NCBI GenBank assembly: GCA_963797095.1 | Contig: CAWCNY010000003.1 | Span: forward strand, 736,001-800,000 | Source: an uncultured Chloroflexia bacterium | GTDB taxonomy: Bacteria > Chloroflexota > Chloroflexia > QHBQ01 > JADMIH01 | DNA length: 64,000 bases | Direction of reading: 5' to 3' | Part shown: positions 16-36,257 of the stretch, in pieces | Layout: each line of letters starts with the position of its first letter | How positions within the stretch are numbered: the first letter of the stretch is position 1 | Notes under the pieces: generated by a model | The model's database searches: none | Told to the model about the DNA's origin: nothing | The model's input: only the letters and a program-made list of their open reading frames with translations | Position numbers and translations under genes: made by a program

Positions 16-1413
16 TCAAGTTCCCATGCGCGAGGGTCGCTGGTGGGCCTGGGCTGCACGGCGGTAGTATTCCATCGCCTGCTTGTGATCGCCCCGCTCT
101 TCCAGCACCTGAGCATAGCTGAACGTGAGTGCGTACACCGCTTCCTCAAACGGAGTTTGCTCGATGGCCTCAAGCGCCTGGTGGAACAATCGATCTGCTT
201 CTTTGGTGTTGCCCCGCTTTTCCTCGATCAAGGCCGCAACCTGGAGGGCCTCGGCATGTGTGCGCTGGGCGTTCCCGCGTGTTTGCTTGCCGGTACCTTC
301 ACTCTGCTTGCTGAGTGCCTCGCTCAGTTTGACGCTCTCCTCTGCATATTTGGCTGCCTCGTCCAGGTTGCCCCGCTGCCTTGCCAGGTCGGCGTAGTTG
401 TGATACAGGCTGCTGAGCAACACCTGGTCTCCCGCATTGGCAAGCAGGCCCTCCGCCTTCTTCAGCAGATCTTCGGCCTCCGAGTACTTCTGTTCGCCCA
501 TCATTAGCTCGGCCAGATTCATACTGATAGCTGCGGCTTCTGCCCGGTTGTCGGCGGCCTCATAGATGTGGAGGGCACGCGTTGCATATAACTTGGCTCT
601 GGCCCAATCGCCCTTGGCCTTATAGCCTGTCGCTATACCCCAGAAGATATTTGCCTGGCGTTGCAGATCGTACACATCATCGAGCATTTTGAGGGCATTC
701 TGATATGTGCTGATGGCGTGCGGCAGATCGTTCGCCGCCCAGTAATCATTCGCAAGGTTGCGATATACGCTCAGGTGTAGGTTTACATCCTTGGCTTCGT
801 TCTTCTGGACCGCACGCAAGCATTGCAAATGGTATTCCAATGCCAGTTGCGGCTGGCTCTGTTGATAAAGTGCTACGCCGAGCATGTTGCGAACGGTGGT
901 AGTAGCTTCCGCATCACCATCTTTCTCAGCGATCTCAAGGGCCTTTTCCAATTCAGGGCGCGCAAGGTCCGGCTCCGATTTTTGCAAATAGGCCAGCCCG
1001 CGCAGGAATGGGATGCGGTAACGAATACGGGCGGGTAGTTTTGGCATATATAACTCGGCGCTTGCTTCAGCATCCGCCAGGAGCTTGAGCGCTTCGTCCG
1101 AATTATCGGTACGGATCAGCATTTTGGCATAATTGAACTGGTATGTCAGGTCTTCTTGGAGTGCGTCAACTTCTGGCGGAGTCTCTGTATCGAGCCGAGC
1201 AACCAGGAAATCAGCAATGGGGATATTCAATCTCCTGGCAAAAACGTCCAGGGCTTTGAGCGATGGCCTTACCGCCCCACGCTCCAGAGCGCTTACATAC
1301 CCCTTGGTAAATTCGGGGCCGGCAAGCACTTCCTGTGTCATGCCCCGCTCTAACCGTGCCTTGCGAATCCTCATTCCAAGCGCGGCTAGCGTATTCTTAG
1401 TAGAGACATCCAT
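16..1413 (-). CDS. XRE-family HTH + TPR transcriptional regulator (RRNPP/NprR-like architecture)
   Basis: N-terminal LGMRIRKARLERGMTQEVLA...YVSALERG...PS Cro/C1 HTH followed by ~380 aa of TPR-like helices; GGGGAG RBS upstream. Confidence 0.85.
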   Translation of the reverse strand: MDVSTKNTLAALGMRIRKARLERGMTQEVLAGPEFTKGYVSALERGAVRPSLKALDVFARRLNIPIADFLVARLDTETPPEVDALQEDLTYQFNYAKMLIRTDNSDEALKLLADAEASAELYMPKLPARIRYRIPFLRGLAYLQKSEPDLARPELEKALEIAEKDGDAEATTTVRNMLGVALYQQSQPQLALEYHLQCLRAVQKNEAKDVNLHLSVYRNLANDYWAANDLPHAISTYQNALKMLDDVYDLQRQANIFWGIATGYKAKGDWARAKLYATRALHIYEAADNRAEAAAISMNLAELMMGEQKYSEAEDLLKKAEGLLANAGDQVLLSSLYHNYADLARQRGNLDEAAKYAEESVKLSEALSKQSEGTGKQTRGNAQRTHAEALQVAALIEEKRGNTKEADRLFHQALEAIEQTPFEEAVYALTFSYAQVLEERGDHKQAMEYYRRAAQAHQRPSRMGT

Positions 1414-1847: not shown

Positions 1848-4235
1848 CTACTCGTCGCACTCAGAAAGAAATGTGTTGGACACGATCTTGGTCACCTGCC
1901 CTCTCGTTGCGTTGTTGCTTGGGCGGAAATATGGTAGATCGCTCGGAGGTACGCACGGCTCCGGGTTGCTACAGGGATAGCCGCTCACTACACCCCGGTT
2001 AGCAAGTTGCTGGGTGAAAGTATAGAAAGTCGAGCCTGGAGGCATATCCTCGAATAACTGCGTGCCTGGCGGATCTATGATATTTGCTGCCAGCGCCACA
2101 ATCTTCGAGATCTGCCCGCGTGTCGCGTTGCTATTCGGCCTGAAGTAGGGCAAATTGAGAGGACCTACACAGGGCTCGCCCACACCTCCACATGGATAGC
2201 CGCTCATTATGCCCCTGCTCGCCAGCCTCTGTATGAAGGTATAGAAAGTTGAGCCGGGGAGCACATCCTCGAAGCTCTGACCGCTGGCGGGTTCTACAAA
2301 TCCTGCGGCGCTTGCCACCACGCTTGAGAGCTGCCCCCTGGTGATGTTCATACCGGGCCGGAAGTATGGATCGTCAGTTGGATCGCAAGGCTCACCAACC
2401 CCGCCGCAGGGATACCCCGACAGAATGCCTCTGCATGCCAGGCACCTCGCAAACGCGTAGAATGTGCTTCCCTCCGGCACATCCGCGAATTGCATGCTGC
2501 AAGTAGTCGGGCTAGGGCTTGCGGTCGGTCCACCTGTAGATGTAACTATTGGTGTGAGTGCAGCGCTAGCAGTGGGAGTAGTGGTCGCAGTGTCGGTAGT
2601 GGTCGCGGTGTCGGTAGCGCTAGCGGTGGGGGTAAACGTGGGGGTGGATGTAGGCGTCGCTGTGGGAGTGGACGATGGCGTAGATGTAGGGATCGGCGTC
2701 TGTACTCCCGGCCGGTCTCCTCTGTCCACGTAGAAGTCGCCCTCCCCCGCCCCATGCCTCGTATCTATCCACGAGGCCAGCGCATAGCTATTGTCCGGTG
2801 CGAACACCAGCGACTTGCGCACGCCCAGGTAATCCACCAGCTTGAGGTCTTGCACGTTGTCCGGGTTGTTCGATACGTCGGTGACGCGCACGTTGGAGCT
2901 CCAGGTCACCCCCCCATCGGTGGACTGCGAGTAAACCAGGTCATACATGTCGCCCGTGGGCTGGTAGCGCCTGTCGTACCATGTCACCCCTGTAGTGCCA
3001 TCTGGGGCTGTCGCTATCGAAGGTTGGAACTGGTCGATGTTGTTGCCTACCGGATCGTCGTTGATTCGCGTTGGCGTGCTCCACGTGACCCCACCGTCGG
3101 TGGTCCTGCTGAAAGCTATATCCCCGAACCTGCCGCTGCTGCCACACAGCTTATAGTCAGGCTCCCATCGCCCATCGTTCCACACCGCGTATACCGCTTC
3201 CGGGTCGGTAGGCGACACCGCGATCTGGGGGTAGTGATTAATACGCAGGTAGTTGCAACTTTCCTTCACCACCAGCACCAGCTCGTGATATTTGTAGTCC
3301 GGCCCGCCGGCCAGGGTCGCAGGCGTGCCACCGATCAGCCTGTCCGGCCCCCAGGTGGCCCCACCGTCCGTGCTCCGATCCAGGTATATATCTCTCGGCT
3401 CCAGCAACAGATTGTTCGGCTTGTACTCGAATGCTACATATACCGTGCCGTCCGAAGCCACCGCCGACGATGGCCCGAACGAGTAGTAGTGGTTCGCATC
3501 CGACACATCTACCTGCGAGCTCCAACTAACCCCTCCATCGGTGGAGCTACGCATTTTGACCCCCTGCCAGAACGGGTCCGTGTTGTTGATGTAAGTCCAG
3601 AAGGCGTACAGCTTGTTGGCGAGCGGTCCCTGGGTACGCCGGTCAATAGCCAGGCTTATGCCCGCCACGTACTCATACTGGCCCTGCACCACCACCGGCA
3701 CAGGCGAACTCCAATCCAACCCGTTGGTGGTGGTCAGCACAAATAGAGCGGTGGACACGGTGCTCGATATGGCGAGACCTGTAAGATAAGCCGTACCGCT
3801 ACCGTTGAACGCCACGTTCGTTTCACCCGGTATAGGTGTGAAGCCGTTGCCCCATACATCGGTGAAAACCCGCGTGACCCAGCTATTTCCTCCGTCGGTG
3901 CTGGTAGCATAAGCAGGTGCCGAGCCGTTCCTGTCAAAATGGTCGTATCCCGCTATGATCATCTGCGGATCGAGCGGATTGATCGCTATTACCTGGTTCT
4001 TATAATTGGTAGGCGTAACCACCAACAATGGGGTGACGGCGATATCGGTTCCCCATAGTGGTTTCACGCCTCCCACCTGTGTGTAAGTGTGCGCTGTGGT
4101 GCGTACGGCAAGCACCAGGAACAGAGCGGCGCTCGCCGCGAGCACGACAACAGATCGACCCGGGCCTGCCCTCCAGGTCTGGATGTGGGGTTTCAGCCCG
4201 CGACGTACGGAATGCGAAGTGCGATTATCGCTCAT
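1848..4235 (-). CDS. Secreted SLH-domain protein with BNR/Asp-box (sialidase-like) beta-propeller
   Basis: N-terminal hydrophobic segment, repeated STDGGxTW Asp-boxes, PT-rich linker, three C-terminal SLH repeats (FxDV..GSTFY...GYPC...FRP...TRGQ). Confidence 0.85.
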   Translation of the reverse strand: MSDNRTSHSVRRGLKPHIQTWRAGPGRSVVVLAASAALFLVLAVRTTAHTYTQVGGVKPLWGTDIAVTPLLVVTPTNYKNQVIAINPLDPQMIIAGYDHFDRNGSAPAYATSTDGGNSWVTRVFTDVWGNGFTPIPGETNVAFNGSGTAYLTGLAISSTVSTALFVLTTTNGLDWSSPVPVVVQGQYEYVAGISLAIDRRTQGPLANKLYAFWTYINNTDPFWQGVKMRSSTDGGVSWSSQVDVSDANHYYSFGPSSAVASDGTVYVAFEYKPNNLLLEPRDIYLDRSTDGGATWGPDRLIGGTPATLAGGPDYKYHELVLVVKESCNYLRINHYPQIAVSPTDPEAVYAVWNDGRWEPDYKLCGSSGRFGDIAFSRTTDGGVTWSTPTRINDDPVGNNIDQFQPSIATAPDGTTGVTWYDRRYQPTGDMYDLVYSQSTDGGVTWSSNVRVTDVSNNPDNVQDLKLVDYLGVRKSLVFAPDNSYALASWIDTRHGAGEGDFYVDRGDRPGVQTPIPTSTPSSTPTATPTSTPTFTPTASATDTATTTDTATTTPTASAALTPIVTSTGGPTASPSPTTCSMQFADVPEGSTFYAFARCLACRGILSGYPCGGVGEPCDPTDDPYFRPGMNITRGQLSSVVASAAGFVEPASGQSFEDVLPGSTFYTFIQRLASRGIMSGYPCGGVGEPCVGPLNLPYFRPNSNATRGQISKIVALAANIIDPPGTQLFEDMPPGSTFYTFTQQLANRGVVSGYPCSNPEPCVPPSDLPYFRPSNNATRGQVTKIVSNTFLSECDE

Positions 4236-5904: not shown

Positions 5905-5932
5905 TTGATACTTCGTAAACTCATGGTATAAT
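5905..5932 (+). promoter_or_regulatory. Sigma70-type promoter for the second XRE-TPR gene
   Basis: TTGATA-16 bp-TATAAT with extended -10 TG. Confidence 0.55.
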
Positions 5933-6070: not shown

Positions 6071-7582
6071 ATGACTATGCCACATCCGAAGAGACGTACC
6101 CGCAGAGCACCTGTCCGAACGGTCGGTCTGCGCATCCGCAAGCTAAGGCGTGCACGAGGGATGGGTCCCCTTGCCCTTGCCGGGCCGGAGTTTACCAAGC
6201 GATACCTGCGCGCCGTTGAACGCTGCAATCTTATTCCATCCCTTCGAGTGCTAGAGCTTTTTGCCCATCGCCTTGATGTTCCGGTACAGCAGATCCTGAG
6301 GGCTAACAGCGCGCAATACACAAGCTCCGGCCTGACGAGCGACACCGAGTTGGGCGCCTTGCATGAAGACCTTAACTATCAACTCAACTATGCCAAAATG
6401 CTCATTAAGGACGGCAAACTGGAGGAGGCCCTCGATTCCATCCGCTTGGCGCAAACCTATCTTGAATCGGCTCGCCCTCACAACGCCAAGCTGCCGCCCC
6501 ACCTCCTTTATCGCATCCCGATGTTGCGTGGTATGACCTATCTGCAAAGCTATAAGCCCGATACTGCCTTGCCTGAGCTGGATAAGGCGCTCGTATTCGT
6601 TCAGGGAGACGAAGAGAAAGCCGCCACAGTGCATAATCTGATCGGCGTGGCCTACTACCTCAAGGAACGCCCGGAACTGGCTATCAGGGAGCACCTGATT
6701 GCTTTCCATGCCGTCCAAAACAATGTCGTGCGCGACTTAAGCTCCCGTTTCAGCATCTACCGTAACCTGGCTAACGACTACGTCACGCTGGGTGATACCA
6801 AACAAGCGGTTGCTACTTACAAACTTGCGCTGCCCATCCTCCAGGACCTGAACGACCCGGCTCGCAAGGCTGCGATCTTCTCAGGATTAGGCATTGCTTA
6901 CGCGGATATCAACGATACTGTCAATGCCATACTCTGGTCCAGCCGCGCGCTGGAGATCTATACGGAGACCGGATTGCACCTCAAGGCCGCGGAAGTATCC
7001 CTCAATCTCGCCGAGCTACTGGTAAGCGAGCAGAGATTTGACGAGGCCGAGCCGTTCCTTCGGGAAGCGCATGCTATCCTGGCCGACCCCCGGCAGGAGG
7101 GAAATAACCTGCTCCTGTGCCAGCTCAACAGGGTCCGCGCGCTGTCAGCACTCTATCAAGGGCAGATTGGTGCGGCTGACGAGCATATTCAGGCAAGTCT
7201 CACGTTCGGAAAAGAGGCCGCCGTGGAGGCAAGCGACGCGTGCGCCATCGTGGCCGGTTCGTATAGAGGCACCGACAAGAAGATTCGCCCTGGAAGCGCC
7301 TGCTACCCCATACGGGCCTATGTGGAGTCCCTGCACCTGGCGGCCAAAATAGCAGAGATCAGGGGTAACCTCCCCACCGCGGACGAGATGTTTGGCAGAG
7401 CCCTTGAGTGGGCGGAGAAAACCGGCTCGCATGAAACCATCCGTACCATCACTCTCGGTTATGGCTCGACTATGGAAATGCGTGGAGCACTCGAGCCTGC
7501 TATGGTTTACTACAAAGCCGCTGCTCAGGCCAATCAACCATTGAAGCGAAAGAATGCTGGGCCGGCTGTATTGGTAGGGTGA
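6071..7582 (+). CDS. XRE-family HTH + TPR regulator, paralog of 16..1413
   Basis: Shares LAGPEFTK, EDLxYQxNYAKMLI, YRIPxLRG and YRNLANDY with the first regulator; GAGGGG RBS. Confidence 0.85.
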   Translation: MTMPHPKRRTRRAPVRTVGLRIRKLRRARGMGPLALAGPEFTKRYLRAVERCNLIPSLRVLELFAHRLDVPVQQILRANSAQYTSSGLTSDTELGALHEDLNYQLNYAKMLIKDGKLEEALDSIRLAQTYLESARPHNAKLPPHLLYRIPMLRGMTYLQSYKPDTALPELDKALVFVQGDEEKAATVHNLIGVAYYLKERPELAIREHLIAFHAVQNNVVRDLSSRFSIYRNLANDYVTLGDTKQAVATYKLALPILQDLNDPARKAAIFSGLGIAYADINDTVNAILWSSRALEIYTETGLHLKAAEVSLNLAELLVSEQRFDEAEPFLREAHAILADPRQEGNNLLLCQLNRVRALSALYQGQIGAADEHIQASLTFGKEAAVEASDACAIVAGSYRGTDKKIRPGSACYPIRAYVESLHLAAKIAEIRGNLPTADEMFGRALEWAEKTGSHETIRTITLGYGSTMEMRGALEPAMVYYKAAAQANQPLKRKNAGPAVLVG

Positions 7583-7639
7583 AAGAAGCCTTTGTAAAGC
7601 AGTCGCCAAGTAGTATGGCGGCTCCATCAATTTACTAAT

Positions 7640-7683
7640 AAGTGGTAGATATGCCGCGTATATACGCGGCATATCTACCACTT
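7640..7683. repeat. 44-bp perfect palindrome between convergent genes (possible bidirectional terminator)
   Basis: AAGTGGTAGATATGCCGCGTAT|ATACGCGGCATATCTACCACTT is its own reverse complement. Confidence 0.85.
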
Positions 7684-7724
7684 GCCTGTCATCGGTAAGA
7701 ATAACTGGTATGACGAAAGAGACT

Positions 7725-7958
7725 CTAGTGACCAGGATCAGGAGTAGGTGTGGCCGTGGGCGTTGGCGTCGGATCGTCCGGACAGTCGATGTCCGGGTCG
7801 GGCCTCCCCACGCCATCGCAGTCCGAAGCGTAGGTTACTCGCACGTTGTTGCTTTGTATCGAAGGCAGGATCACCGATCCGGCGACAGTGGAACCGGCCA
7901 ACAACATCGCCAGTAACACTCGCTTCGGCGCCTTTTGCCTTGGGGTCTTGACTTCCAT
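7725..7958 (-). CDS. Small secreted peptide (77 aa): signal peptide, acidic two-Cys segment, PT tail
   Basis: GAGGAG RBS 6 nt before ATG; basic n-region, hydrophobic VLLAMLLAGSTVAG, TYA-S possible cleavage site; C-terminus SDCDGVGRPDPDIDCPDDPTPTPTATPTPDPGH. Confidence 0.7.
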   Translation of the reverse strand: MEVKTPRQKAPKRVLLAMLLAGSTVAGSVILPSIQSNNVRVTYASDCDGVGRPDPDIDCPDDPTPTPTATPTPDPGH

Positions 7959-8100
7959 CGCATTCTCCTCTCAATGTGTGGTTGCGCACCTGCCCTGAGG
8001 CGCTTCTCTGGTCGGCGCCGGGCAGAGTACCTGTTTCGATGAGAGGAGTTTGCGGTTGCATCGGTGCAACCTCAACGGCTATTCTTGACAACCATTTGTC

Positions 8101-9510
8101 ATGTTTATCGTCAAATGCGTTGCTGACCCTGCAATATTGTCAAGACCGGCAACCAGGGCCACCGGCAAAGCGCACCCGGCCCAACAAGAGGTTATGGTTA
8201 TGGTTATGGTCAGCCTGCACAGGACGCATCCTTTCGGTGATCTCGTCACCCGGTATCGCGCCCGAAAACATGGCCTGAGCCAGGCAAAGCTCGCCGACTT
8301 GAGCGAGCTTGATTCCACCGTGTTGAGCCACATGTGCAACGGCAGGCGGCTGGAGGGCAGCCACGCTCGCGAGCGAGTGCTCAAGGTGATAACAGGGTTC
8401 TACAGGGCGGGCGCGCTCAAAACCGTGGAAGAGGCCAACAGCCTCCTGAGGACTGCCAGGCTGGCCGACCTCGACAACTCCGACCCCGATGACGCGCGCT
8501 TGCTCGCCCTCCTGGAAGCGGAGCGCGCCCCAATCCCGATCAATCCCCCACAGCAGCCTTCACAAGTGCAGTCCGAGAGGTCGCCAGGGACCAGCCTTCC
8601 ACCTCAAAGTGATAACCAGAAGAATAGGCCCGACCTTATAGGGCGGCATATCATAGGCGCTGCCGCGATCGATGTGCCTTTGGACGATTCGCATCCGTTC
8701 ACGGTCGGCACGCCTGTGATCTACCCTCGCTTCTTCTTTGGCCGCTCAAAAGAGCTTGATAGGCTGTTTCGGTTATTGCGCGGGCCGCAGTTGCAAAATG
8801 GGGCCGTGATCGGCCCGCGCCATATCGGCAAGACCTCCCTGCTGCGCCACATGGCCGCTATCACCCTTGTGGACGCAGACTCCCTACGGCCCGGCCAGCG
8901 GCACAACTGGTTGCCCCACCCCGATGGATATGTATGGGCTTACGTCGACCTCCGAGACTCGCGGCTGAATACGCCCAAACTCCTCCTCTCGCACATCCTC
9001 CATCAATTCGGCCTGCCAATACAGAGGAAATGCACAATCGAGGTGTTCGGCCAGGTTGTACGCGACAGTCTGCGGCTCCCTTCGGTGATCCTGCTCGACA
9101 ATATAGACGTGGCGGTGGAACACTACAGCAGGCTCGATTACGAGTTCTGGGTGGGTCTTAGCTCGATTGCTCTCAACGACGCCGAGGGGCGGCTGAGCTT
9201 CATAGTTAGCTCCCAGGAACCCCTCGCCCACATGGCGAGCCACCCGGTGGTGGGGTCATCCTTCTTTACGTCAATTGTCACAAGCACTGAACTGGGGCCA
9301 CTAGAGGAAAGCGAGGCCCTGGAATTGATAGATGCCTCCCCACTCCCGTTTCCCCTGCGCGACGTTGCGTGGATCCTGGTGCAGAGCAACCTGGAGCCGA
9401 TGCCCCTACAATTCTTGTGCCGCGAGTGCCTCCACTCGCTGGAAGCCGGGCAACGCGACGATAACTGGCGCGATGAAGCCCTCCGCCAGATCGATGCCTG
9501 GCCTAAGTGA
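8101..9510 (+). CDS. XRE-like HTH fused to STAND-like P-loop ATPase (start probably ~8200)
   Basis: HGLSQAKLA HTH; FFGRSKEL; Walker A GPRHIGKTS; Walker B-like VILLDN. Confidence 0.75.
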   Translation: MFIVKCVADPAILSRPATRATGKAHPAQQEVMVMVMVSLHRTHPFGDLVTRYRARKHGLSQAKLADLSELDSTVLSHMCNGRRLEGSHARERVLKVITGFYRAGALKTVEEANSLLRTARLADLDNSDPDDARLLALLEAERAPIPINPPQQPSQVQSERSPGTSLPPQSDNQKNRPDLIGRHIIGAAAIDVPLDDSHPFTVGTPVIYPRFFFGRSKELDRLFRLLRGPQLQNGAVIGPRHIGKTSLLRHMAAITLVDADSLRPGQRHNWLPHPDGYVWAYVDLRDSRLNTPKLLLSHILHQFGLPIQRKCTIEVFGQVVRDSLRLPSVILLDNIDVAVEHYSRLDYEFWVGLSSIALNDAEGRLSFIVSSQEPLAHMASHPVVGSSFFTSIVTSTELGPLEESEALELIDASPLPFPLRDVAWILVQSNLEPMPLQFLCRECLHSLEAGQRDDNWRDEALRQIDAWPK

Positions 9511-15062: not shown

Positions 15063-18000
15063 TCACTCGCCACCCGTCACTCGCCACTCGTCATTCTTCA
15101 CATCCTCATAGATCCGCGTGGTGCTGGGGAGCGGTTCTATATCCAGGTATTCGCGTAGATTCCGCACGCAACGCTCATAAGTCGCCAGCGCCATCCGCCT
15201 CTGCCCTTGCCGGGCGTAGGCGCGCATCAGGACACAATAAGCGTCCTCCCAACCGGGGTCGCGGACCAGCACCGATTCGCAGAGGCGAATTGCTTCAGTC
15301 AACTCATTCCTGCCGAGTAATGCTTCGGCCAGCAAGGTCGCCGCCTCCATGTACCGTGCTTCCAGGCGCTCGCGCTCGTCGCGGGCCCAATCTTCGTACA
15401 GCCAATCGCTCAGGTACGCCCCTTGATGTAGCTCTACTGCCCTCTCCAACTCCTCGTAATAAGCCCAGGCTCGATCTGCGCCATCTGAGTTGGCTTCATC
15501 CCGAATTCCGTATTCCGTGTTCCGCACTCGCAATGCCCTGGCGCTGTCCAGCCTGGCCTCGAACTCCTCCACGTCTAGCCACACCCCACCGGGCGGGCAG
15601 AAGCGGTAGGCCCCGCCCTGCCTGCGCACGTAGAAGGGCGGCGTGCGGGGCGGGCGCAACGGCTCAAGGGCGGCGTTGAGGCCGTTAAGAGTCACCTTGA
15701 ACTGCGCCTCGGTCTCCGATTGCCCTTCTTCGGGCCACAGCATGTCGCAGATCTGCTCACGCAGGAGCCATCGCTCGCGGTTAGTGACCAGCAGTGCAAG
15801 CATCTGCTGTGCTTTCTTGCGCTGCCATTCGTGCGGCCCAAGCTCCTCGCTGCCGCGCCAAACGCGCAAAGGGCCAAGCGTTTGGATCTTCAGGGTCACG
15901 CCGGGGTTGTACGTTTGTGTGGCATCATCGGCGGCAACAGCGGGAAAGGCCCGGTTGAGGAGCGCTTGCGCTTCCACGCGCCACCTGGGGTGCTCGCGGG
16001 CAGCCAGCAGCACGGGCACAAGCATCATCTGGTCTCGCGGGCCGAACAGCGTTCGGTTACTCAGCAGACCCCTATATCCGTGGCGCTGTGCAAGCTCGAA
16101 CGCCTGGATCGCAAAGAGCGCGGCCTGTTTCGGGTCGCCTTTGCGATAGTACCTGATAGATCTCCAGAGATGCACCACCGCCTGGCCATACGTATCCCTG
16201 CCCGCCCGGTACCGCTTGAGAGCTTCGTCCAGATAGCCCTCTGCATCCGGAGCGCCGTTGGCCGTAGCTACCGCCCCCAGGGCAGTCCACAGTTGAGCGG
16301 CGGTCCATTCGTCGCCGCTGCGCTCCACTATAGACAGACCTTCGCGGGCAGCGTCCTGCGCGGCGGCAAGGTCGCCCCGAAAGCCATGCAGCAACGCCAA
16401 CCCCAGGTAGGCCTCTGCTTTGGGGTGCTGGACATGGAGGCTATCGGCGAGCACCATGGCCTGAAGGTAATGCTCGTTTATCGCTCTGTATTCGTCCGGA
16501 TGCGCCGGTTGCGTAGCGTGGCCTGCACAGATGCGCGCTTCAGCCTCGAACAGGATGGAACCAAGGCGGCGCGATGCATCAAGGCCCGCCTGCGCGTAAC
16601 TCAGGGCGCTAGCGGGATCGCCCTCCATGATGCCTACCAGCGACAGGAGCAGAGTGACCTCACGATGGGCTTCGAACGGACGGTTCCCCGGTAACGATTC
16701 GTGTTCCCGATCCATTTCCGCTTGAAGTTTGGAGCGGGCCTCGGCCAGGCGTCCCAGTCGCACCAAAGCTCTAGCCTCAATCCTGGACGCTTGCGATGTG
16801 TCGCGCTGGCCGAAATCGAGCAGGCGCAACGCCTGGTCGGCTCTGCCCCGGTTGAGGCGATTCTCAGCGATCAGGACGAGCAATTCGGTTCGTGCGGCTT
16901 GCTCGGCCTGTGGCAGCATCCTGAAGGCCTGCCTCAGTAAAGACTCCGCCGGTGCGGGCTGCACCGTGTCGATGTACACCATGGCCTGGCCTTTGAGGGC
17001 TAGAGCTTGGCCTGTTGGATCTCCTTGTGCCTGGTAGATCCTGGCCGCTTGCTCGTAGGCCCGCCGGGCGCTGTCAAAGCGCGCCAGCAGGCGTGCGGCA
17101 TCCCCACGGGCGATCAGAAGTTGAGGGTGGGCTTTGATCTCATCTGCGGGAATCTGATCTATCCATGAGAGCACAGTCATCAAACGGCCACTTCCCAGCC
17201 AGGATGGCGTCCAGTGCTCAAGCTCAAGGGCTGCGCCCTTTACGTCGCCTGTTGCCAGCAGGTGATACATGACCTGTTCGCCTGAGCGTATTTCTCTGTA
17301 GTACTCCGCTGCCTGAGTGTGCAGGGCGTCCCATTCGGGGAGCGTCGCCGCTGCATGCTCTTGAAGGAAAGCATGGAACAGCGGGTGATAGCGGTATGCG
17401 CCACTACCCGACGCCGTCAGGAACAGCCCCTGGCGGTAGAGCGCCTCCAGTTGTGACGCGGAGTCATTGGTCCCTAACACGCGGTCGCAGGCGGCAGGCT
17501 CCAACTCCGACAACACTGACGAGCGCAGCAGGAAGGTTCGGATCTTCGCGGGCTGGCGGGCAAGTACCTCCCGTGCAAGATAGGCAAATAGGGCGTCCCT
17601 GCTCCGGGCTCCAAGAACCGACCCCTCGCTATCAGCCTGCTGTGTGTCAACGCTTGCCTGCTTGCTCTGCCAGACGAGTTGGAGCGCAATCGCCCAACCG
17701 CCCGTCTGCTCGCTGACCTGGGGCGCTTCTTCCTCAGCCAGCCCCTGGCCGTAAACCGAGGTGAATAGCCGGGAGGTCTCGTCCACGGTGAAGGCGAGCT
17801 GCTCCTCCCCAATCTCAAGCAACTCCCCACGGATTCGCAGGGTAGGCAAGCAGTCCAGTTGGGGACGGCGGCGCGTGGACAATACAATGTGCAGCAACGG
17901 TGGTAGGGTTTCGATAAGGCGCTCGATCAAGGCGCGAATATCCGGGTGCTCACCAACCTTGTGGTAATCGTCGAGCACCAGGATCGTTTCGCGGTCGAGC

Positions 18001-18389
18001 GCCGGAACAAGGTCGTTGACCAGTGAGTCCAACGCGTGGCCCCACACCTGTTGCCCGCTGCCCCCATGCTGCAATATGGCGAGAGCGTTGCTGCCCGCTT
18101 CGGCGCTCGCCGCGAGACTCCGGCACGCGTGAACGAGGTGCACAAGAAACACCACCGGGTCATCGCACGCCATCTCGCCAACGGTATACCAGATGGTGGG
18201 GTAGCGGTCCTGTGCGGCAAAGGCGGCCAGCGCCGTGCTCTTGCCATAGCCCGCGCTTGCACTAACCACCGTCAGAGGATATTCGACAACGCTGGAGAGG
18301 AGATTGTCTAGCCGGTCACGTGCCAGCCAGCGCCGAGGCAGCCGAGGAGGCAGGAGCAGAGAACGAATCAGAATATCATCGCCATACAT
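15063..18389 (-). CDS. MalT-like STAND ATPase-TPR activator with C-terminal SARP wHTH/BTAD
   Basis: ASAGYGKST Walker A, LVLDDYH, YRYHPLF; C-terminal TLGPLRV...WQRKKA...LWPE...LDVEEFE...EDAY..LMRAY. Confidence 0.9.
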   Translation of the reverse strand: MYGDDILIRSLLLPPRLPRRWLARDRLDNLLSSVVEYPLTVVSASAGYGKSTALAAFAAQDRYPTIWYTVGEMACDDPVVFLVHLVHACRSLAASAEAGSNALAILQHGGSGQQVWGHALDSLVNDLVPALDRETILVLDDYHKVGEHPDIRALIERLIETLPPLLHIVLSTRRRPQLDCLPTLRIRGELLEIGEEQLAFTVDETSRLFTSVYGQGLAEEEAPQVSEQTGGWAIALQLVWQSKQASVDTQQADSEGSVLGARSRDALFAYLAREVLARQPAKIRTFLLRSSVLSELEPAACDRVLGTNDSASQLEALYRQGLFLTASGSGAYRYHPLFHAFLQEHAAATLPEWDALHTQAAEYYREIRSGEQVMYHLLATGDVKGAALELEHWTPSWLGSGRLMTVLSWIDQIPADEIKAHPQLLIARGDAARLLARFDSARRAYEQAARIYQAQGDPTGQALALKGQAMVYIDTVQPAPAESLLRQAFRMLPQAEQAARTELLVLIAENRLNRGRADQALRLLDFGQRDTSQASRIEARALVRLGRLAEARSKLQAEMDREHESLPGNRPFEAHREVTLLLSLVGIMEGDPASALSYAQAGLDASRRLGSILFEAEARICAGHATQPAHPDEYRAINEHYLQAMVLADSLHVQHPKAEAYLGLALLHGFRGDLAAAQDAAREGLSIVERSGDEWTAAQLWTALGAVATANGAPDAEGYLDEALKRYRAGRDTYGQAVVHLWRSIRYYRKGDPKQAALFAIQAFELAQRHGYRGLLSNRTLFGPRDQMMLVPVLLAAREHPRWRVEAQALLNRAFPAVAADDATQTYNPGVTLKIQTLGPLRVWRGSEELGPHEWQRKKAQQMLALLVTNRERWLLREQICDMLWPEEGQSETEAQFKVTLNGLNAALEPLRPPRTPPFYVRRQGGAYRFCPPGGVWLDVEEFEARLDSARALRVRNTEYGIRDEANSDGADRAWAYYEELERAVELHQGAYLSDWLYEDWARDERERLEARYMEAATLLAEALLGRNELTEAIRLCESVLVRDPGWEDAYCVLMRAYARQGQRRMALATYERCVRNLREYLDIEPLPSTTRIYEDVKNDEWRVTGGE

Positions 18390-30099: not shown

Positions 30100-31034
30100 G
30101 TAGGATAGGCGGCCAGCGAGTTACCTTTGCAGGCACTTTTCCAACCGCCCTCCCCCGAGCCCTGCGTGCCCGTTTCCGTATCACGTGGCCCTCCGGTGAC
30201 CTATCTCGGCGAGTGCTCGCCCATCATAGCGCCCGTATTGAATGTCATGGTGGCATTTCTGGCAGACTATCAAGGTTTTGCGCTGTCGTGCTGCCATTAT
30301 TCGCATCCATCTTGGTCGTTCTGCGTGACCCTTTTGCTCAACGTCTGCTAACTTCCGTATGGGGTGAACTTCGATTTGCTCCGTTGCACCACATAGCTCA
30401 CAGCGTTGCGCCAGTAGTCGTTCGACCAACTCGCTACGGTCGCTCCAGATGGAGATGTTCAGGACTGTTTCGGCGTTTCGCATCACGCGTACCTCACAGC
30501 TACCGACCATCAGGTCACTTGTGCTCCTTCGCGCTGTGAGCGGACTTCCCGCTCTCCCTGGTGGGTCGTTACTCCCACGACTACTATGAGCTACTCCGTC
30601 ACCATTGGCCCGAAGGCCAACCCTAGGGCTCGAGCCCCTTAGGTGGTCCCATGTTCCGTCACAGAGGAACGTGCTAGAGCGACTTAGGTTCCCCACTCAT
30701 ATCCTTAAATGAGTCATTACTCATCATTCCTGTGTGCAAGGTGTACTACGCACGAAAGTGGATTACGTAGTTCATACAGGCATCGGTGTACAAACGTGCT
30801 ACCGACGTGCGTGCCTTTACGCTACTGGACATTGGGGTTCAGGTAGTTTAGCTTTAACCATATTGCTCAGGTGTTGCAGGGCCACAGTGTACACGTCTTC
30901 GACTGCTCCCCGCTTCACGACATGCTCTTGTTCCCTTTCCCTTTCGGATCCAGGTAAGTATGTTCACCTCGAAGTCATTACCCTGAACTTCGGCCATCTA
31001 CGATGGCGATTCCTCTATGCGTGACATGGCGCAC
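30100..31034 (-). mobile_element. Inner group II intron (ML/IIA-like) with internally deleted ORF, plus the only DV 3' strand and DVI
   Basis: 5' GTGCGCCATGTCACG at 31034; DV-like GAGGGCCACGTGATACGGAAACGGGCACGCAGGGCTC; 3' end ...GCCTATCCTAC. Confidence 0.8.
30181..30483 (-). pseudogene. Intron-encoded protein remnant: RT N-terminus fused in frame to the HNH/En domain
   Basis: MRNAETVLNI joined to ELVERLLAQRCELCG...EVHPIRKL...RKTLIVCQKCH; RT and X domains absent. Confidence 0.8.
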
Positions 31035-31608
31035 GCTTTCCAGGCACGAGGCTCTCCAGTGGTAACTCTATCGATAACTACTCAGTTTCGGCATTCTGCA
31101 TCTCGCATACCTATCTGGCTGGCTATCTGTACCACCTGTGCCCCTTCCCCTTGTACTGGGCGTTACCCCAATCATTTGAGTAGTGTGGGCACTCCGTTAC
31201 CTTAGGCCTCTCGACCCTTAGGCAATCCCGCATTTACCCTTGTCAGACGTTTAGCTCGTTTAGGTGCCTCTCTCGTCCCCTTCCTCCTGTTCGTTACAGG
31301 TCGTTCACCGCGTAGAGCGTTCCATCAGCCGCTATTTTACTGACGTATTGCGGTGACGCCGATTACAAGTATGCTACGGCGGGTCACCAATTCGACCACT
31401 GGAGACTAAGGTTCAGCCAATACAGGTTTCACTATGTGAGCAGGACTTGCGGTGCATCGTGCTACATACTTTCACACTTATCCGCTTTAGTGCCATGCTG
31501 TTTTCCCCTTTGCCTTTCGACGCCAGGTAGGGCAGTTGTCCTTAGGGTCATATGCTCTCAACCCTATCGTCCTGAGAACGAAATCTGATAAGAGCCGAAA
31601 CGGCGCAC
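31035..31608 (-). mobile_element. Outer, ORF-less group II intron (5' part up to the DV loop)
   Basis: 5' GTGCGCCG at 31608; micro-ORF MQNAETE* at 31078-31101; DV 5' strand GAGAGCCTCGTGCCTGGAAAGC ends at the inner intron start. Confidence 0.75.
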
Positions 31609-32199
31609 AGAGCGGTTGGTCCGGCGCTCGACCTTGCGGCCCAGTATCCGGCGTATGGCTCTTGGATAGGCATTATGTCCGTCGGTGGTCACCTTGGCCG
31701 GTCTGTGGCCAACCACTTCTCTGGCCTGCGTGAAGAACTTCTTGGCCGCCTCCATGTCTCGCTTCTCCGAGAGCATCGAGTCCACCAGATTGCCATCACA
31801 GTCTACGGCTCTGTACAGATAACACCATTTTCCGCCAACCTTGACGTACGTCTCGTCTGTGAACCACGATCCACCAGCTTTGCCTTTGCGCCTGGAGCGC
31901 AGTTGCTCGGTGACCAGCGGAGCGAACCGGCTTTCCCAATCTCTCACCGCTTCGTGGGTGAACTCGAAGCCTCGCTCCAGGAACATCTCAGCAAGATCTC
32001 GCAGGCTCAACTCGTAGCGTAGTCTCCACAAGACTACCGGGAACACTATGTCCGTGGGGAACTGGAGATGATTGCAAATGGTGCCTGTTCGCTCGTTGAA
32101 GACGCGAGTACACACTCTACAACGGAACACGTTGTAGCCGAGGGAGGTTTTCCTGGAGAGAAGGGTAGTGAAAGAGGGGGAGCAGTGAAGGCAATTCGT
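31609..32199 (-). CDS. IS6 transposase, exon 1 (Zn ribbon + DDE); the expected start codon reads ACG
   Basis: NCLHC...CRVC...FNERTGT, LSLRDLAEMF, DETYVKV, YLYRAVD, TTDGH..YPRAI. Confidence 0.8.
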
Positions 32200-32364
32200 C
32201 GGAAGTCCTTGGGTATTCCTTGCTAGGAGATGGCTGGAGTTGGGTAAGCATACTCTATAATCGTCATCATCGCCACCACCTGTTCTCATTTCTGACGCTT
32301 CCTAGCTCTCAGGCAAATACTGGAACTGCTTGGATTACCGGTTGAAGATCCCGGATAATACTCT

Positions 32365-34791
32365 CTACGCCAGGGTCTTGGTGGCTTCCGCCAGGTTCAG
32401 TCTGTTGATGCGCCGGATGGCGGGGAGGGTGGCAACTTCCATTGTCAGGAGGATGCCCAGGGAAGCCAGCACGTAGCTCAGCGGAGCGATCACGATCTTG
32501 AATTGAATCAGGTCCGAGGAGAAAGCCGCTCCCATCTGGGCTGCTGCTAATGTTCCCAGCAAGATGCCCGGTATCAGCACCACAATCCAGGTAATGACGT
32601 TCTCAATGCTCATCTGCCAGGTAATCGGGCCGCCCCCCATACCCACGGCGCGCATCGTGGCGAACTCCCGTTGGCGCTCCAGCACGTTCACAGTCATGGA
32701 GTTGAACAGCAGCGCGAAAGACATCGCCACAGCGAAGGCCAGCACCACTCCCATGAAGAGATAGAAGAACCCCATAAGCGAGTTCCAGTCGCTCTCCACC
32801 TCCGACTTGAGCCGCACGCTTGCCGCGCCCGGCAGATGATACAAATTGGCCTTGATAGCCTGAGCCTGGGACGGGTCCACGGTGAGGTACAGCCCATTGA
32901 AGATAGCCCCGGACCCGGCAGGCACGCCCGCCAGTTGCAGGGCGGTGCCAACAGAGATAAAAGCGGACGAGCCGCTCAGTTCGTCGGACGTGCCCCCCAG
33001 CGTGAAGTCCTCCTTGCCCAGGGGAGTGCTCACCTGGAGGGTATTGCCTATGGAGAGCTGCAGCTTGTCGGCCAGATCGGGCGTGAGCACCATGCGGTTG
33101 CCTGCCAACGCCGGCTCGGGCGTCGCGCCTGCAGAGGACCCACCTGAGAGCTGCAGCACGTGCATCTTCTGGGCTGGATTGAACGCCGTGAGAAAGGCAT
33201 CCACGCTGTGGCCATTGGCCTGCAGGCTGACCGGTAGCTGGATTATCGGCTCGACCTGCCGCACGCCCGTCCAGCCCTTCACCTGATCGAGGGTTGGCTG
33301 CTGCTGGGGGTCATTGAACGTGACCGAAACGTCCCAGCGCTCCACATCATTGAAGTTGTGGCTCAGCAGGTATGACATGGAGTCGAACATACCCCAGCTC
33401 ACGAGCACGAGAATGAAGGCCAATACTATACCCAGCCCGGTGCTGAGGGAACGAGCGCGCACGCGAAACACGTTGCGCAGCGGCAATCGCAGCCAGATAG
33501 AGGGGTGCAGCCCCCGCAGCACCCGCTCCAACCAGGATACTCGCCCATGCACCAGGGCCAGAGCGGGGTCCATGCGCATTGCGTCGGCGGGGGCCATGCG
33601 CATTGCGGCGCGGGCTGGCCCCGCGCAGGCAAGCAGTGAGAAGAGCAGGCTGAGGCCCACTCCGATGATCACCACGTCAGCATAGAAACGCGACTCCACC
33701 AACGGGATGCCCAGCTCGGCCGCGTATTCGCTCGTGACCACGTTCGATAGTAACAGGCCGCCCGGAATGCCAACGATCGCCCCGCCAAGAGCGATCAACA
33801 ACCCGAAGGTCAGGTAGTGCGCCATCACCGCCCCGTTGCTGTAGCCTATCGCTTTCATCAGCCCGATCTGGGGCTGCTGAGATCGCACGGTGCGCCCGAG
33901 CATCGCGTACATAGCAATCGCCGACACGATGAGGATCAGGCCGGGCATCAGGGTGGAAAGTTCGCGATATCCGTCGAGGTCGAGGCTGAGAGCTTCGTTG
34001 GACGGCTGGGTCGAGCGCGGGGTGACGGCCGTCACCCCGTACGGCGCGAGCACGGCCTGGACGTCGCTTTGCACCTTCTGTGCATTTACGCCGGGGGCGT
34101 AGCGCACGACTATATCGTTGATAGCGCCTGCGCCGACTGCGGGGCTGCTCGCCGTTCCCTGGCCGGCTTGCGCTTGCAGCTGTTGCAACTCCGGAAGGGG
34201 CACGAACAACACGGCGAACGTGCGCGCCGAGGGGAGAATATCCTGCCTGCTTGGTGTGACTACCAGATATTCTGGGCTGGCAGCTATGCCGTCCACCGTG
34301 AAATCTGTTCGTTGGCCGTTTATGATAGGGCTCACCATGCCGCCGGGCTGGATCCCGTAAATGTCCGCAAAGTGCTTTTCAACGAGGGCCGAGGTGGTAT
34401 CGCCCGCCGACAGGTAATGACCCTGTGTGACCAGAACATCGTTCACCGAAGGGTGCTGGCCCGCCGGCAGCCCGATGAGGCGAGCGCGTATCTGCGCGCC
34501 GCTTGAAAGCTGGAAACCTGTATCAACTACGAGCCGGCCCGTGGCGGCCTCCACGCCGGGCACCTGGGCCACGGCGTCAGCAGCGCTCTCGGGCGCGGAC
34601 TGCAAGGAGAATGTGGCGTCGGCGAATTTGAGAAGGTCGTAGGTGCGGTTGTATGAGCTCGACAGGTCACGGTATGCTCCGACCAGCGCGATGAAGCTGG
34701 CGATCCCGAGCGCCACGATCAGGACCAGCGCACCCGTCTGGGCGAGGGCAGCTCGAAGGTCACGGTATGTCTTGTGCAGGAGAGTGTTCAT
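32365..34791 (-). CDS. ABC transporter permease, duplicated FtsX/MacB-type
   Basis: Two FtsX-like TM blocks (QIGLMKAIGY; ERQREFATMRAVG) with large extracytoplasmic domains. Confidence 0.9.
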   Translation of the reverse strand: MNTLLHKTYRDLRAALAQTGALVLIVALGIASFIALVGAYRDLSSSYNRTYDLLKFADATFSLQSAPESAADAVAQVPGVEAATGRLVVDTGFQLSSGAQIRARLIGLPAGQHPSVNDVLVTQGHYLSAGDTTSALVEKHFADIYGIQPGGMVSPIINGQRTDFTVDGIAASPEYLVVTPSRQDILPSARTFAVLFVPLPELQQLQAQAGQGTASSPAVGAGAINDIVVRYAPGVNAQKVQSDVQAVLAPYGVTAVTPRSTQPSNEALSLDLDGYRELSTLMPGLILIVSAIAMYAMLGRTVRSQQPQIGLMKAIGYSNGAVMAHYLTFGLLIALGGAIVGIPGGLLLSNVVTSEYAAELGIPLVESRFYADVVIIGVGLSLLFSLLACAGPARAAMRMAPADAMRMDPALALVHGRVSWLERVLRGLHPSIWLRLPLRNVFRVRARSLSTGLGIVLAFILVLVSWGMFDSMSYLLSHNFNDVERWDVSVTFNDPQQQPTLDQVKGWTGVRQVEPIIQLPVSLQANGHSVDAFLTAFNPAQKMHVLQLSGGSSAGATPEPALAGNRMVLTPDLADKLQLSIGNTLQVSTPLGKEDFTLGGTSDELSGSSAFISVGTALQLAGVPAGSGAIFNGLYLTVDPSQAQAIKANLYHLPGAASVRLKSEVESDWNSLMGFFYLFMGVVLAFAVAMSFALLFNSMTVNVLERQREFATMRAVGMGGGPITWQMSIENVITWIVVLIPGILLGTLAAAQMGAAFSSDLIQFKIVIAPLSYVLASLGILLTMEVATLPAIRRINRLNLAEATKTLA

Positions 34792-34818
34792 GGCAGGAAA
34801 CCTCCGAGAAACATACGG

Positions 34819-35553
34819 CTACCAGACGAGCTCGGCCACGGGGATCGGGTGAGCATTGGCCTCTACGTGGTCGATCATGCCGTCCCGCAGCCTTACTACT
34901 CGATCCGCGATGGGTGCGATCGCGGTATTGTGAGTAACCAGTAACACAGTCGAGCCTTCCTGCTTGTTGAGATTGCGAATCACCTGCAAAACCTGCTGGC
35001 CGGTAGCTACGTCCAGATTCCCGGTGGGCTCGTCGCATAATATCAGGGGTGGGTGCGTGGCGAGGGCGCGAGCGATGGCCACGCGTTGTTGCTCGCCGCC
35101 GGATAGTTGCGATGGGAAGTGGCTTGCGCGCTCCTCCAGGCCCACCATGCCGAGAAGCTCGACCGCTTCGTGCCGCTGCTTGCTTCCGTCTCCTTCTACG
35201 AGAGCCAGGGCAAGCTCCACGTTCTCCGCGGCAGTGAGAGTGGGGATCAGGTTGAAGAACTGGAAAATAAAGCCGACTTTGCGGCGCCGGTATGCGGTCA
35301 GTTCTCGCTCGTCATAGCGAGCAATATTCTCCCCATCCACGATCACCGAGCCGCCGGTCGGCCTGTCCAGCCCGCCAAGCAGATTGAGAGTGGTGGTCTT
35401 GCCGCAACCCGAAGGGCCAAGAAGCACTACGAATTCTCCGCGGTTGATGAGCAGGTTAAGTCCCCGCAACGCGTGGACCGTGACGTCGCCCATCTTGTAA
35501 TCGCGCGTCAGCCCTCTCAATTCGATCAATGGCTCGGGTGATTCGATAGACAT
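34819..35553 (-). CDS. ABC transporter ATP-binding protein (LolD/MacB-like)
   Basis: GPSGCGKT, LSGGEQQRVAIARA, DEPTGNLD, VTH. Confidence 0.95.
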   Translation of the reverse strand: MSIESPEPLIELRGLTRDYKMGDVTVHALRGLNLLINRGEFVVLLGPSGCGKTTTLNLLGGLDRPTGGSVIVDGENIARYDERELTAYRRRKVGFIFQFFNLIPTLTAAENVELALALVEGDGSKQRHEAVELLGMVGLEERASHFPSQLSGGEQQRVAIARALATHPPLILCDEPTGNLDVATGQQVLQVIRNLNKQEGSTVLLVTHNTAIAPIADRVVRLRDGMIDHVEANAHPIPVAELVW

Positions 35554-35563
35554 TGCACTTTCC

Positions 35564-36238
35564 TTATGAAGAGGCCGGGGACCAGGGGCTGGTAGCCTGA
35601 ACAGATCCTAGCCTCTGGCCCCTGGCCCCTGGCCCCTTTGGTTCTTCCATGATACCTTCCAGCATCAGCCTCATCGAAGCTTCAATGCTCCGCCGTAGCG
35701 GTACCGTTTCCGGGTCGACCAGCCATAGCAGCCCCAGGCCCTCATACATGCCCGTCATGGCGGTGGCCGCAGCCTGGGGGTCTACGTTGCGAAACTCGCC
35801 GCTGTCTATGCCCTGCCGGATGATCTCGCCCAGCCCCTCCTGGAATCGCCTGAGGTATTGCTTTACGGACTGCTTCACGACGTTGTGCCGGCTGATCAGC
35901 CCATAGAACTCGAGGGCGATCGGGACGAACCAGGTCATGCGCTCCAAGTCCGCGGCACTGCGCCTGGCATAGGTGATGAGCCTCTCGCCAGCGGGACCTT
36001 CGGTATGTATCAAGGTATGCAGTTCGGCGAATTCTATGTCGAAAATGCGGTTGAGCAACGCCTCGATGACGGCGTCCTTGCTCCGGAAATACCAGTAAAG
36101 CGCTCCTTTACTCAGGTGCGCCTCCTCCACGATGTCGTCCATCCGCGCCTTGTGGAAGCCAAGGCGGGCGAACACGGTGGTGGCCGCTTCGAGTATCTGA
36201 TTCTTGCGCTCTTCGCTTACGTCGGGTCGGGGGGCCAT
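35564..36238 (-). CDS. TetR/AcrR family regulator
   Basis: ILEAATTVFARLGF...MDDIVEEAHLSKGALYWYFRSK. Confidence 0.93.
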   Translation of the reverse strand: MAPRPDVSEERKNQILEAATTVFARLGFHKARMDDIVEEAHLSKGALYWYFRSKDAVIEALLNRIFDIEFAELHTLIHTEGPAGERLITYARRSAADLERMTWFVPIALEFYGLISRHNVVKQSVKQYLRRFQEGLGEIIRQGIDSGEFRNVDPQAAATAMTGMYEGLGLLWLVDPETVPLRRSIEASMRLMLEGIMEEPKGPGARGQRLGSVQATSPWSPASS

Positions 36239-36257
36239 AGGCTATAGCACCTTCGCA

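Follow-up and report, generated by a model that had tools for sequence, protein, structure and literature searches.

A pair of convergent genes was analyzed in a 64,000-nucleotide stretch of DNA from an uncultured Chloroflexia bacterium (GenBank assembly GCA_963797095.1, contig CAWCNY010000003.1, positions 736,001 to 800,000 of the forward strand; hereafter the window). One gene codes for a regulator with a predicted XRE-type helix-turn-helix (HTH) domain and about nine tetratricopeptide repeats (TPR), and the other codes for a 77-residue pre-peptide that is predicted to be secreted. We suggest that the two self-contained genes make up an RRNPP-like receptor/pro-peptide cassette, with a probability of about 0.45. 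The cassette would be RRNPP-like in its architecture and layout, but two features of family members, sequence homology of the receptor and co-variation of the mature peptide, are lacking. The small open reading frame (ORF) itself is a real gene under selection and the founder of an unannotated family.

Organization of the locus

The two genes are arranged tail-to-tail, and their stop codons are separated by a 142-nt spacer (7583-7724). The features of the locus, in window positions, are the following.

6071..7582, + strand: regulator gene; 503 aa, predicted XRE-type HTH and about nine TPRs, predicted cytoplasmic
7725..7958, - strand: pre-peptide gene; 77 aa, no Pfam or NCBIfam match
7827..7958, - strand: pre-peptide codons 1-44; K/R-rich start, hydrophobic core, linker of about 12 residues, AxA motif (T-Y-A here)
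7725..7826, - strand: codons 45-77 and stop, putative released part; acidic and Pro-containing loop between C47 and C59, then a (PT)n tail ending DPGH
7640..7683, no strand: perfect 44-nt palindrome with 22-nt arms; 100% complementary inverted repeat in the spacer
5905..5932, + strand: promoter-like TTGATA-16-TATAAT with TG; 11/12 consensus, some 140 nt before the start of the regulator gene

An initial annotation of this DNA had pointed out the segments HNLIG, RNLAND and LNLAE in the regulator and a two-cysteine acidic stretch, SDCDGVGRPDPDIDC, with a Pro-Thr (PT) tail in the 77-residue ORF. All of them are present, and both ORFs lie where they had been placed. The strong ribosome-binding site (RBS) assigned to the peptide gene is a GAGGAG Shine-Dalgarno (SD) sequence about 7 nt before the ATG. 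The proposed signal peptide was recognized by eye and hydropathy only, as a K/R-rich segment (residues 4-13) followed by a hydrophobic segment (residues 14-31).

The palindrome in the spacer is probably a bidirectional terminator hairpin that serves both convergent genes. The sole match of an Rfam scan was a sub-threshold microRNA model on this palindrome (mir-4536, 37.5 bits versus a cut-off of 76), which was rejected as a chance match. Four promoter-like sites were found in the scanned region versus 2.3 expected in shuffled sequences, and these sites are pattern matches only.

The peptide gene and its family

The dN/dS ratios of the peptide ORF were 0.13, 0.25, and 0.18 in three orthologue pairs with dS values of 0.85-1.27. 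An RBS of the AGGA(G)/GAGG type stands shortly before the chosen start codon, usually ATG, in 18 of 20 distinct family members. These 20 members, taken from stored loci and including one row from the unpublished genome G033, were aligned (alignment A1). A profile of A1 was searched against 1.84 billion representative proteins and yielded 79 matches at E ≤ 1e-3, 54 of them at E ≤ 1e-10. Seventy-two of the 79 are shorter than 100 aa and share the family plan, and at least one (P0079) resembles a PT-rich false positive. A word search with the single peptide sequence recovered only 2 relatives, an ESM Atlas search gave no usable match, and neither Pfam nor NCBIfam holds a family for the peptide. 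Among sequencing runs, the search listed one DNA run (share 0.06) and no RNA run. The missing family and RNA runs would be expected if the ORF were a chance frame or a mis-call whose position beside the regulator is accidental. That explanation is refuted by the dN/dS values of 0.13-0.25, the conserved RBS, the 79 representatives of like length and the convergent position of 16 of 30 genes, and its probability is next to nil.

The family plan in A1 begins with a K/R-rich segment, followed by a hydrophobic core that ends in a conserved glycine (G27) and by a variable linker of about 12 residues. The leader closes with an invariant alanine in a (V/P)-A-(Y/H)-A motif, after which comes an acidic residue pair. 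The C-terminal part consists of a cysteine, a Pro-rich acidic loop of 9-12 residues, a second cysteine and a (PT)n run; the last 2-5 residues are variable and often end in His. A44, P55, T66, and T68 are invariant, and G27, C47, P53, C59, P65, P67, and P71 are conserved at 90% or more. From this alignment we infer cleavage at or before the AxA motif, which is a candidate cut site.

A subfamily without cysteines was found in L101, L102, L104, L105, L111, and L112, all within one regulator clade. The genes at these loci are co-directional in the order peptide, short-chain dehydrogenase and regulator, the last about 2.4 kb downstream, and a CheB methylesterase gene is divergent to them. Because the cysteine pair is absent from this subfamily upstream of its regulator, a disulfide loop, as the initial annotation had envisaged for the peptide, is not universal.

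The family is narrowly distributed. Among 401 genomes sampled evenly across the phylum (including the unpublished G327), only the window's genome and a single weak match within a frame of 401 aa were found. Thirty genes of the family occur in the window's order, spread over 19 of its 40 genomes. By family of the order, it is present in 13 of 25 genomes of f1 plus the window's genome, in 5 of 9 of f3, and in 0 of 5 of f2. The order-level counts for regulator and peptide include the unpublished genomes G016, G021, G022, and G033. Unpublished genomes are the source of three pairs (G022:C551, G022:C110, and G021:C68) and of the orphan peptide G033:C800, and the main conclusions hold without them.

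Linkage of the peptide to the regulator

Sixteen of the 30 peptide genes are convergent and lie directly behind a regulator homologue, at a distance of 110-250 nt (16 loci in 13 genomes). All 30 are distributed as follows.

Convergent, first half: G000:C3, G017:C555, G012:C9 (twice), G012:C84, G012:C95, G039:C96, G025:C28
Convergent, second half: G003:C8, G036:C149, G020:C178, G002:C97, G019:C276, G005:C52, G038:C534, G022:C551
Same strand, directly upstream of the regulator, 1 peptide: G023:C224
Same strand, about 2.4 kb upstream with a short-chain dehydrogenase gene between, 4 peptides: G007:C84, G009:C239, G021:C68, G022:C110
Peptide-dehydrogenase layout whose flank ends before any regulator could appear, 1 peptide: G019:C559
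No regulator homologue within 1.5 kb, 4 peptides: G005:C88, G031:C10, G033:C800, G003:C8:174101
Contig ends, not judgeable, 3 peptides: G039:C244, G017:C660, G017:C97
Degenerate peptide, 1: G017:C253

The peptide at G003:C8:174101 sits 3.6 kb from another pair. Three of the orphan peptides have convergent ORFs of 403-472 aa that belong to no Pfam family. These ORFs were considered as remote regulator homologues and rejected, since hhalign gave probabilities of 0.1% and 1.5% for the two of the three that were compared.

The spacers of 15 convergent pairs were examined. They measure 110-213 nt, and all 15 contain a strong hairpin, with sequences unrelated from pair to pair. The simplest reading of these hairpins is a shared bidirectional terminator. 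Up to 4 cassettes occur in one genome (G012), and the convergent layout with its hairpin has been kept through speciation and cassette duplication.

The search from the regulator side gave 57 matches with E values up to about 1e-39. A convergent peptide accompanies 14 of them and an upstream peptide 5, and 3 are second regulators about 3 kb from a pair. The absence of a conserved small ORF beside homologues had been named in the initial annotation as grounds for giving up its proposal; such ORFs are found at 16 convergent and 5 upstream loci. When the neighbours of the peptide loci were surveyed, no transporter, immunity or modification gene was found to be conserved beside the pair. That no other neighbour is constant supports the regulator as the partner of the peptide, and the predicted soluble HTH-TPR protein is its constant companion.

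A quick maximum-likelihood tree was made for 58 distinct regulators (16 linked, 39 unlinked, and 3 unknown, with two rows from unpublished genomes); it was midpoint-rooted and carries SH-aLRT support only. Given the homology among the peptides, it is most economical to assume that the pairing is old, was duplicated along with the regulator, and has been lost many times. Around the unpaired regulators (39 or more), filters for RBS, hydrophobic core and K/R content gave no convincing other small secreted ORF, although frames of less than 35 codons were not systematically screened. Inspection by eye likewise found no other small secreted ORF beside an unpaired paralogue in the window (16-1413). 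TAG stops disrupt a third regulator paralogue of this genome, at G000:C8:115643-117085 (L003 and L004), and make it a probable pseudogene.

Domains and fold of the regulator

Pfam detected TPR_12 (E = 1.2e-22) and TPR_MalT (E = 9.4e-12) in the regulator, and no HTH domain at E ≤ 0.1 in the window copy. Among 53 aligned homologues, HTH_31 was matched in 46, HTH_3 in 43, and TPR_12 in all 53. Because the window copy aligns to these HTH-matching homologues and its model has a five-helix N-terminal domain, we infer an N-terminal XRE-type HTH, as in all RRNPP members except Rap, that appears too divergent for Pfam. NCBIfam names neither the regulator nor the peptide. A search of related loci with the single regulator sequence gave one true relative and 7 weak TPR-only matches.

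An AlphaFold2 model based on the 53 homologues (pLDDT 89.0, pTM 0.84) is all-helical, without a hydrophobic segment. It begins with five helices (residues 16-76), and a linker of low confidence (79-85) leads to 19 further helices (91-487), which form about nine TPR-like pairs and a cap. The Asn residues flagged in the initial annotation are the usual Asn of TPR_12-type repeats, and N232 is conserved at 90% or more across the regulator family. The dN/dS ratio of the regulator versus its orthologue is 0.12. No NTPase family was found in the regulator with Pfam, NCBIfam or the homologues, so it does not have this mark of STAND proteins.

Foldseek alone gave generic TPR matches, and these were re-ranked by VIA-align as follows.

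LGN TPR domain, eukaryotic, 3ro2_A: Z 27.7, 309 aligned
NprR apo, 5dbk_A: Z 25.4, 352 of 355 aligned, rmsd 4.9
RapI, 4i1a_B: Z 24.5, 350 aligned
phi3T Rap: Z 23.4-23.8, 349-354 aligned
NprR-NprX complex, 4gpk_I: Z 22.9, 342 aligned
MalT domain III, 1hz4: Z 20.6, 320 aligned

Among the bacterial structures, RRNPP receptors give the most complete coverage. Besides the predicted HTH, two features of RRNPP systems are seen here, a cytoplasmic TPR-superhelix receptor (TPR_12, the model, and Z 25.4 to NprR) and an adjacent small pro-peptide gene, whose secretion is read from its sequence only.

Some regulator paralogues of about 385 aa consist of TPR only and have no HTH. They were found in L052 (G005:C52, 1495-2649), L049 (G012:C95, 4941-6083), L053, and L056. 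Two of the four in this clade (G005:C52 and G012:C95) are paired with longer pre-peptides of about 100-125 aa from the same peptide family.

Control of the peptide gene and its divergent neighbour

Upstream of the peptide gene, the following features were found.

7959..8054, - strand: 5' leader of the peptide mRNA; SD region 7959-7973 pairs with an upstream anti-SD at 8040-8054
8055..8205, no strand: divergent control region, conserved, that separates the peptide gene from an HTH-ATPase gene; TTGACAA/TTGTCA-type inverted repeats
8101..9510, + strand: HTH_31 and AAA_22/nSTAND-like ATPase gene (Pfam); a neighbour, not a constant part of the cassette

The true start of the ATPase gene is probably at 8194-8206, where a conserved ATG is seen in the alignment with the orthologous locus. 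At the annotated 5' end of this ORF, a GGTTAT repeat (three copies) encodes VMVMVM.

Aligned with the orthologous locus, the 240 nt between the peptide and ATPase genes reach a mean column identity of 84%; the 328 aligned columns include the first ATPase codons. The flanking genes have saturated synonymous sites (dS 1.1 and 2.05). Identity of 84% despite this saturation indicates that the intergenic region is under constraint. It may serve as an operator or promoter, and its TTGACAA/TTGTCA inverted repeats could be operators.

The SD and anti-SD sequences form an inverted repeat of 15 nt with 87% complementarity. The fold of the peptide leader has a minimum free energy of -63 kcal/mol (z = -5.1), and none of 200 shuffled sequences folds as well. 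The SD is paired with a probability of 1.00 in the window's genome (G000) and in the orthologue; both arms are kept in the latter, where an apparent compensatory change (C-G to U-A) is seen in the inner stem. In 17 peptide genes, the median probability of SD pairing with upstream sequence was 0.72, versus 0.49 in 45 control genes from the same loci. Pairing above 0.8 was observed in 7 of the 17 versus 16% of the controls (Mann-Whitney p = 0.015), a test that is overstated because the loci are kin.

The initial annotation had offered, as an alternative, that the peptide belongs functionally with the XRE-ATPase encoded at 8101-9510. The shared 240-nt control region and its conservation in the orthologue are in favor of such a tie, as is an HTH protein as divergent neighbour at L031, L045, L109, and L110. 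However, a tblastn search with the ATPase against all loci examined matched only the window and the orthologous locus. Elsewhere the divergent neighbours are HTH_3, sigma-70 region 2, PAS/HisKA_3 kinase, TPR, CheB or unknown proteins, which are unrelated to the ATPase. Because it is kept only in the orthologous locus, the ATPase is not a constant partner; this alternative is largely refuted, and we regard it as very improbable.

Evidence for and against peptide signalling

In an RRNPP-like cassette, the pre-peptide would be exported, cut at or before the AxA motif and possibly trimmed further. The processed peptide would accumulate outside the cell and enter through one of the Opp/Dpp-type transporters of the genome, in which 12 SBP_bac_5 (OppA/DppA-type) matches were found; this number is permissive only for uptake. 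Binding of the peptide in the concave, Asn-lined groove of the TPR domain would then alter DNA binding by the HTH. Likely targets would be the conserved region upstream of the peptide gene, giving auto-induction, and the variable neighbouring regulator genes. Translation of the pre-peptide may additionally be gated by the SD-sequestering leader. A complex predicted for regulator residues 88-503 and peptide residues 45-77, run without controls, scored 0.11 and 0.22 versus a mark of 0.32, an outcome that counts neither for nor against binding.

Distances across 12 pairs were compared by Mantel tests. Receptor distances correlated with those of the leader part (r = 0.44, p = 0.004), and this co-divergence of leader and regulator fits duplication as a unit.

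A number of findings weigh against the cassette being RRNPP-like. On the receptor side, the fold does not single out RRNPP proteins because the eukaryotic LGN/Pins TPRs score as high or higher. None of the 16 Pfam families matched by the window regulator at E ≤ 0.1 is RRNPP-specific, the specific families being RNPP_C, Rgg_C, and ComR_TPR. Rgg_C was touched by 6 of 53 homologues with a best E of 0.0017, below any cut-off. A phmmer search against PDB gave E = 0.35 for Rap and E = 0.73 for ComR versus 8e-10 for the eukaryotic TPR protein 6hc2_A. No homology at the sequence level between the receptor and known RRNPP families was thus found by Pfam or by phmmer against PDB.

The pairing is also incomplete. 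Four of the 30 peptide genes lack a regulator homologue in the surrounding 1.5 kb, and 35 of the 57 regulator matches, at least 4 of them at contig ends, have no such peptide within 3.5 kb. On the regulator tree the linkage label changes 9 times (14.1 in shuffles), with at least 5 changes forced by well-supported branches, so the label is patchy. The window's own genome has one intact pair, the unpaired paralogue at 16-1413 (43% identical) and the contig 8 pseudogene, the last two without a peptide.

As for the peptide, the distance of about 12 residues from the hydrophobic core to the AxA motif is long for a plain signal-peptidase site. The putative released part, about 25-33 residues with a possible disulfide, is far longer than the known RRNPP pheromones of 5-10 residues. 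The cysteine pair is missing in the subfamily that lies upstream of its regulator. The Mantel correlation of the receptor with the mature part was weak (r = 0.15, p = 0.15), the sample being small and the region short, so that the co-diversification of receptor and mature peptide seen in RRNPP systems was not found in the 12 pairs. The mean p-distance was 0.45 for the mature part, 0.61 for the receptor, and 0.74 for the leader, making the mature part the most conserved. In Rap-Phr systems, by contrast, the signals typically diverge into private channels. The conservation seen here would agree with a scaffold that is held constant apart from a few specificity positions and permits much cross-talk, or else with a target other than the neighbouring regulator.

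The second possibility leads to a pair of regulator and target without sensing, in which transcription of the small gene is controlled by the HTH-TPR protein or, through convergent transcription, control runs the other way. The peptide would then act outside the cell and never be bound by the TPR domain. It could be an envelope or matrix component, bind metal or Ca by its acidic Cys loop, or serve as an antimicrobial or developmental factor. A mature core conserved across paralogues, without co-variation of the regulator, is expected for a common non-receptor target. Moreover, most regulator homologues do without such a peptide, some peptide genes occur without a regulator, and PT-rich tails are also linkers in surface proteins of this genome, for example the BNR/SLH protein at 1848-4235. 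However, a regulator gene is usually divergent from its target or co-directional with it, whereas the convergent layout with a probable terminator between the genes means that no control region is shared. The lack of a conserved transporter, immunity or modification gene is also at odds with this explanation, which moreover assigns no ligand to the TPR domain. We consider a pair without sensing rather unlikely.

An extracellular signal could also be read by a separate membrane-bound sensor encoded elsewhere, with the HTH-TPR protein only regulating its production. A product of 25-33 residues that is possibly disulfide-bonded is more typical of surface-sensed peptides, and a PAS/HisKA_3 kinase is the divergent neighbour in one locus (L015). 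Yet no sensor kinase is conserved beside the pair, and the cytoplasmic regulator is the only constant partner, which makes a membrane sensor improbable.

We retain the RRNPP-like cassette as the reading stated at the outset. The signalling module proposed in the initial annotation is partly supported, by the recurrent pairing and by an HTH with about nine TPRs that resembles NprR; an RRNPP match in Pfam was not obtained. Of the co-variation it had asked for, the adjacent small ORFs and the co-diverging leader were found, and co-variation of the mature part was not. In a bolder and more doubtful form of the proposal, a lineage-specific family of exported, disulfide-looped, Pro/Thr-tailed peptides would supply, in one Chloroflexota order, the cognate pheromones of NprR-like HTH-9TPR receptors and of their Rap-like, HTH-less paralogues. 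This would be import-and-bind quorum sensing of the RRNPP type outside Bacillota, with a much longer, structured ligand whose scaffold permits cross-talk with orphan paralogues and with gating by the SD leader.

Comparison with known systems

The pair resembles NprR-NprX of the Bacillus cereus group in having a cytoplasmic receptor with an N-terminal XRE-type HTH and a superhelix of roughly nine TPRs of the same size, known here from the genes and the model. An adjacent small gene for a pro-peptide (secretion here being predicted) and several cassettes per genome are further likenesses. Unlike NprR-NprX, the Chloroflexota pair has no sequence-level membership of the family. Its peptide gene is convergent, whereas nprX is co-directional and downstream, and its product of 25-33 residues has a Cys loop and a PT tail, whereas NprX has 7-8 residues.

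Rap-Phr systems of Bacillus, with phage and plasmid Rap, likewise occur as many paralogous cassettes. Their TPR-only receptors of about 360-380 aa with small secreted pro-peptides recall the paired HTH-less paralogues of about 385 aa described above. However, Rap proteins have an N-terminal 3-helix bundle and act on response regulators, and phr genes are co-directional and often overlap the rap gene. Phr peptides owe their specificity to divergence of the mature parts, whereas the mature core is the best conserved part of the present peptides.

Rgg/SHP and PlcR/PapR also place an HTH-TPR receptor beside a gene for a short secreted peptide (secretion is predicted in our case), and some Rgg/SHP pairs are convergent. 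PlcR (3u3w_A) ranked 27 in Foldseek with the regulator model (E = 1.6e-6). These receptors have about 280-310 aa and about five TPRs, versus 503 aa and about nine here, and their peptides are short and hydrophobic.

The best structural (3ro2_A) and sequence (6hc2_A) matches of the TPR region are LGN/Pins and kinesin light chain. They share TPR_12-type repeats whose Asn ladder binds extended peptides, but have neither an HTH nor a paired peptide gene. The match probably reflects repeat type and not shared function. MalT/AfsR-type STAND proteins are similar by the TPR_MalT match and by MalT domain III (1hz4, Z 20.6). They differ in that the present regulator has no NTPase domain and has its XRE-type HTH at the N terminus, instead of a C-terminal LuxR or an N-terminal SARP domain.

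Other features of the window

The window encodes several further large regulators of signal transduction that contain TPR modules. A 1108-aa TPR and BTAD protein lies at 15063-18389. TPR-containing regulators occupy 43369-50102: a TPR protein at 43369-45141, a protein with a zinc ribbon, an adenylate/guanylate cyclase domain and AAA_16 at 45138-47051, and a protein with HTH_31, NB-ARC/AAA_16 and TPR at 47361-50102.

A mobile-element cluster extends over 30181-39660. It includes an HNH endonuclease of the group-II-intron type (30181-30696), two DDE_Tnp_IS240 transposases (31564-32289 and 36741-37478) and an rve_3 integrase (38830-39660). These mobile-element genes lie on either side of a TetR/ABC/FtsX-MacB export operon (32365-36238). 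In the intergenic region between the unpaired paralogue at 16-1413 and the BNR/SLH gene at 1848-4235, the 9-nt unit CCATATCGT occurs three times in tandem (1674-1700).

Implications

The available text of PMC10075063 ascribes peptide-based quorum sensing to the Bacillota/Firmicutes phylum. Literature of this kind, as far as its accessible portions go, regards RRNPP-type signalling as a Bacillota trait, shared by the mobile elements of these bacteria. Our literature search found no paper joining RRNPP with Chloroflexi or Chloroflexota, although supplements of surveys could list non-Firmicute matches. New here, as judged from sequence comparison, would be the phylum, the receptor lineage and the unannotated family of small predicted-secreted peptides.

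The accessible part of one preprint states that rooting of the RRNPP family would benefit from an outgroup, to be found through remote structural homology (bioRxiv 10.1101/2023.09.19.558401). If our reading is true, the Chloroflexota receptor/pro-peptide cassette would supply such an outgroup, and the signal chemistry would be widened to a long, looped, PT-tailed peptide. Even without binding to the TPR domain, a new unannotated family of small predicted-secreted peptides with a fixed regulatory partner is defined. If binding does occur, the cassette would give a handle on the social behaviour of abundant uncultured soil bacteria.

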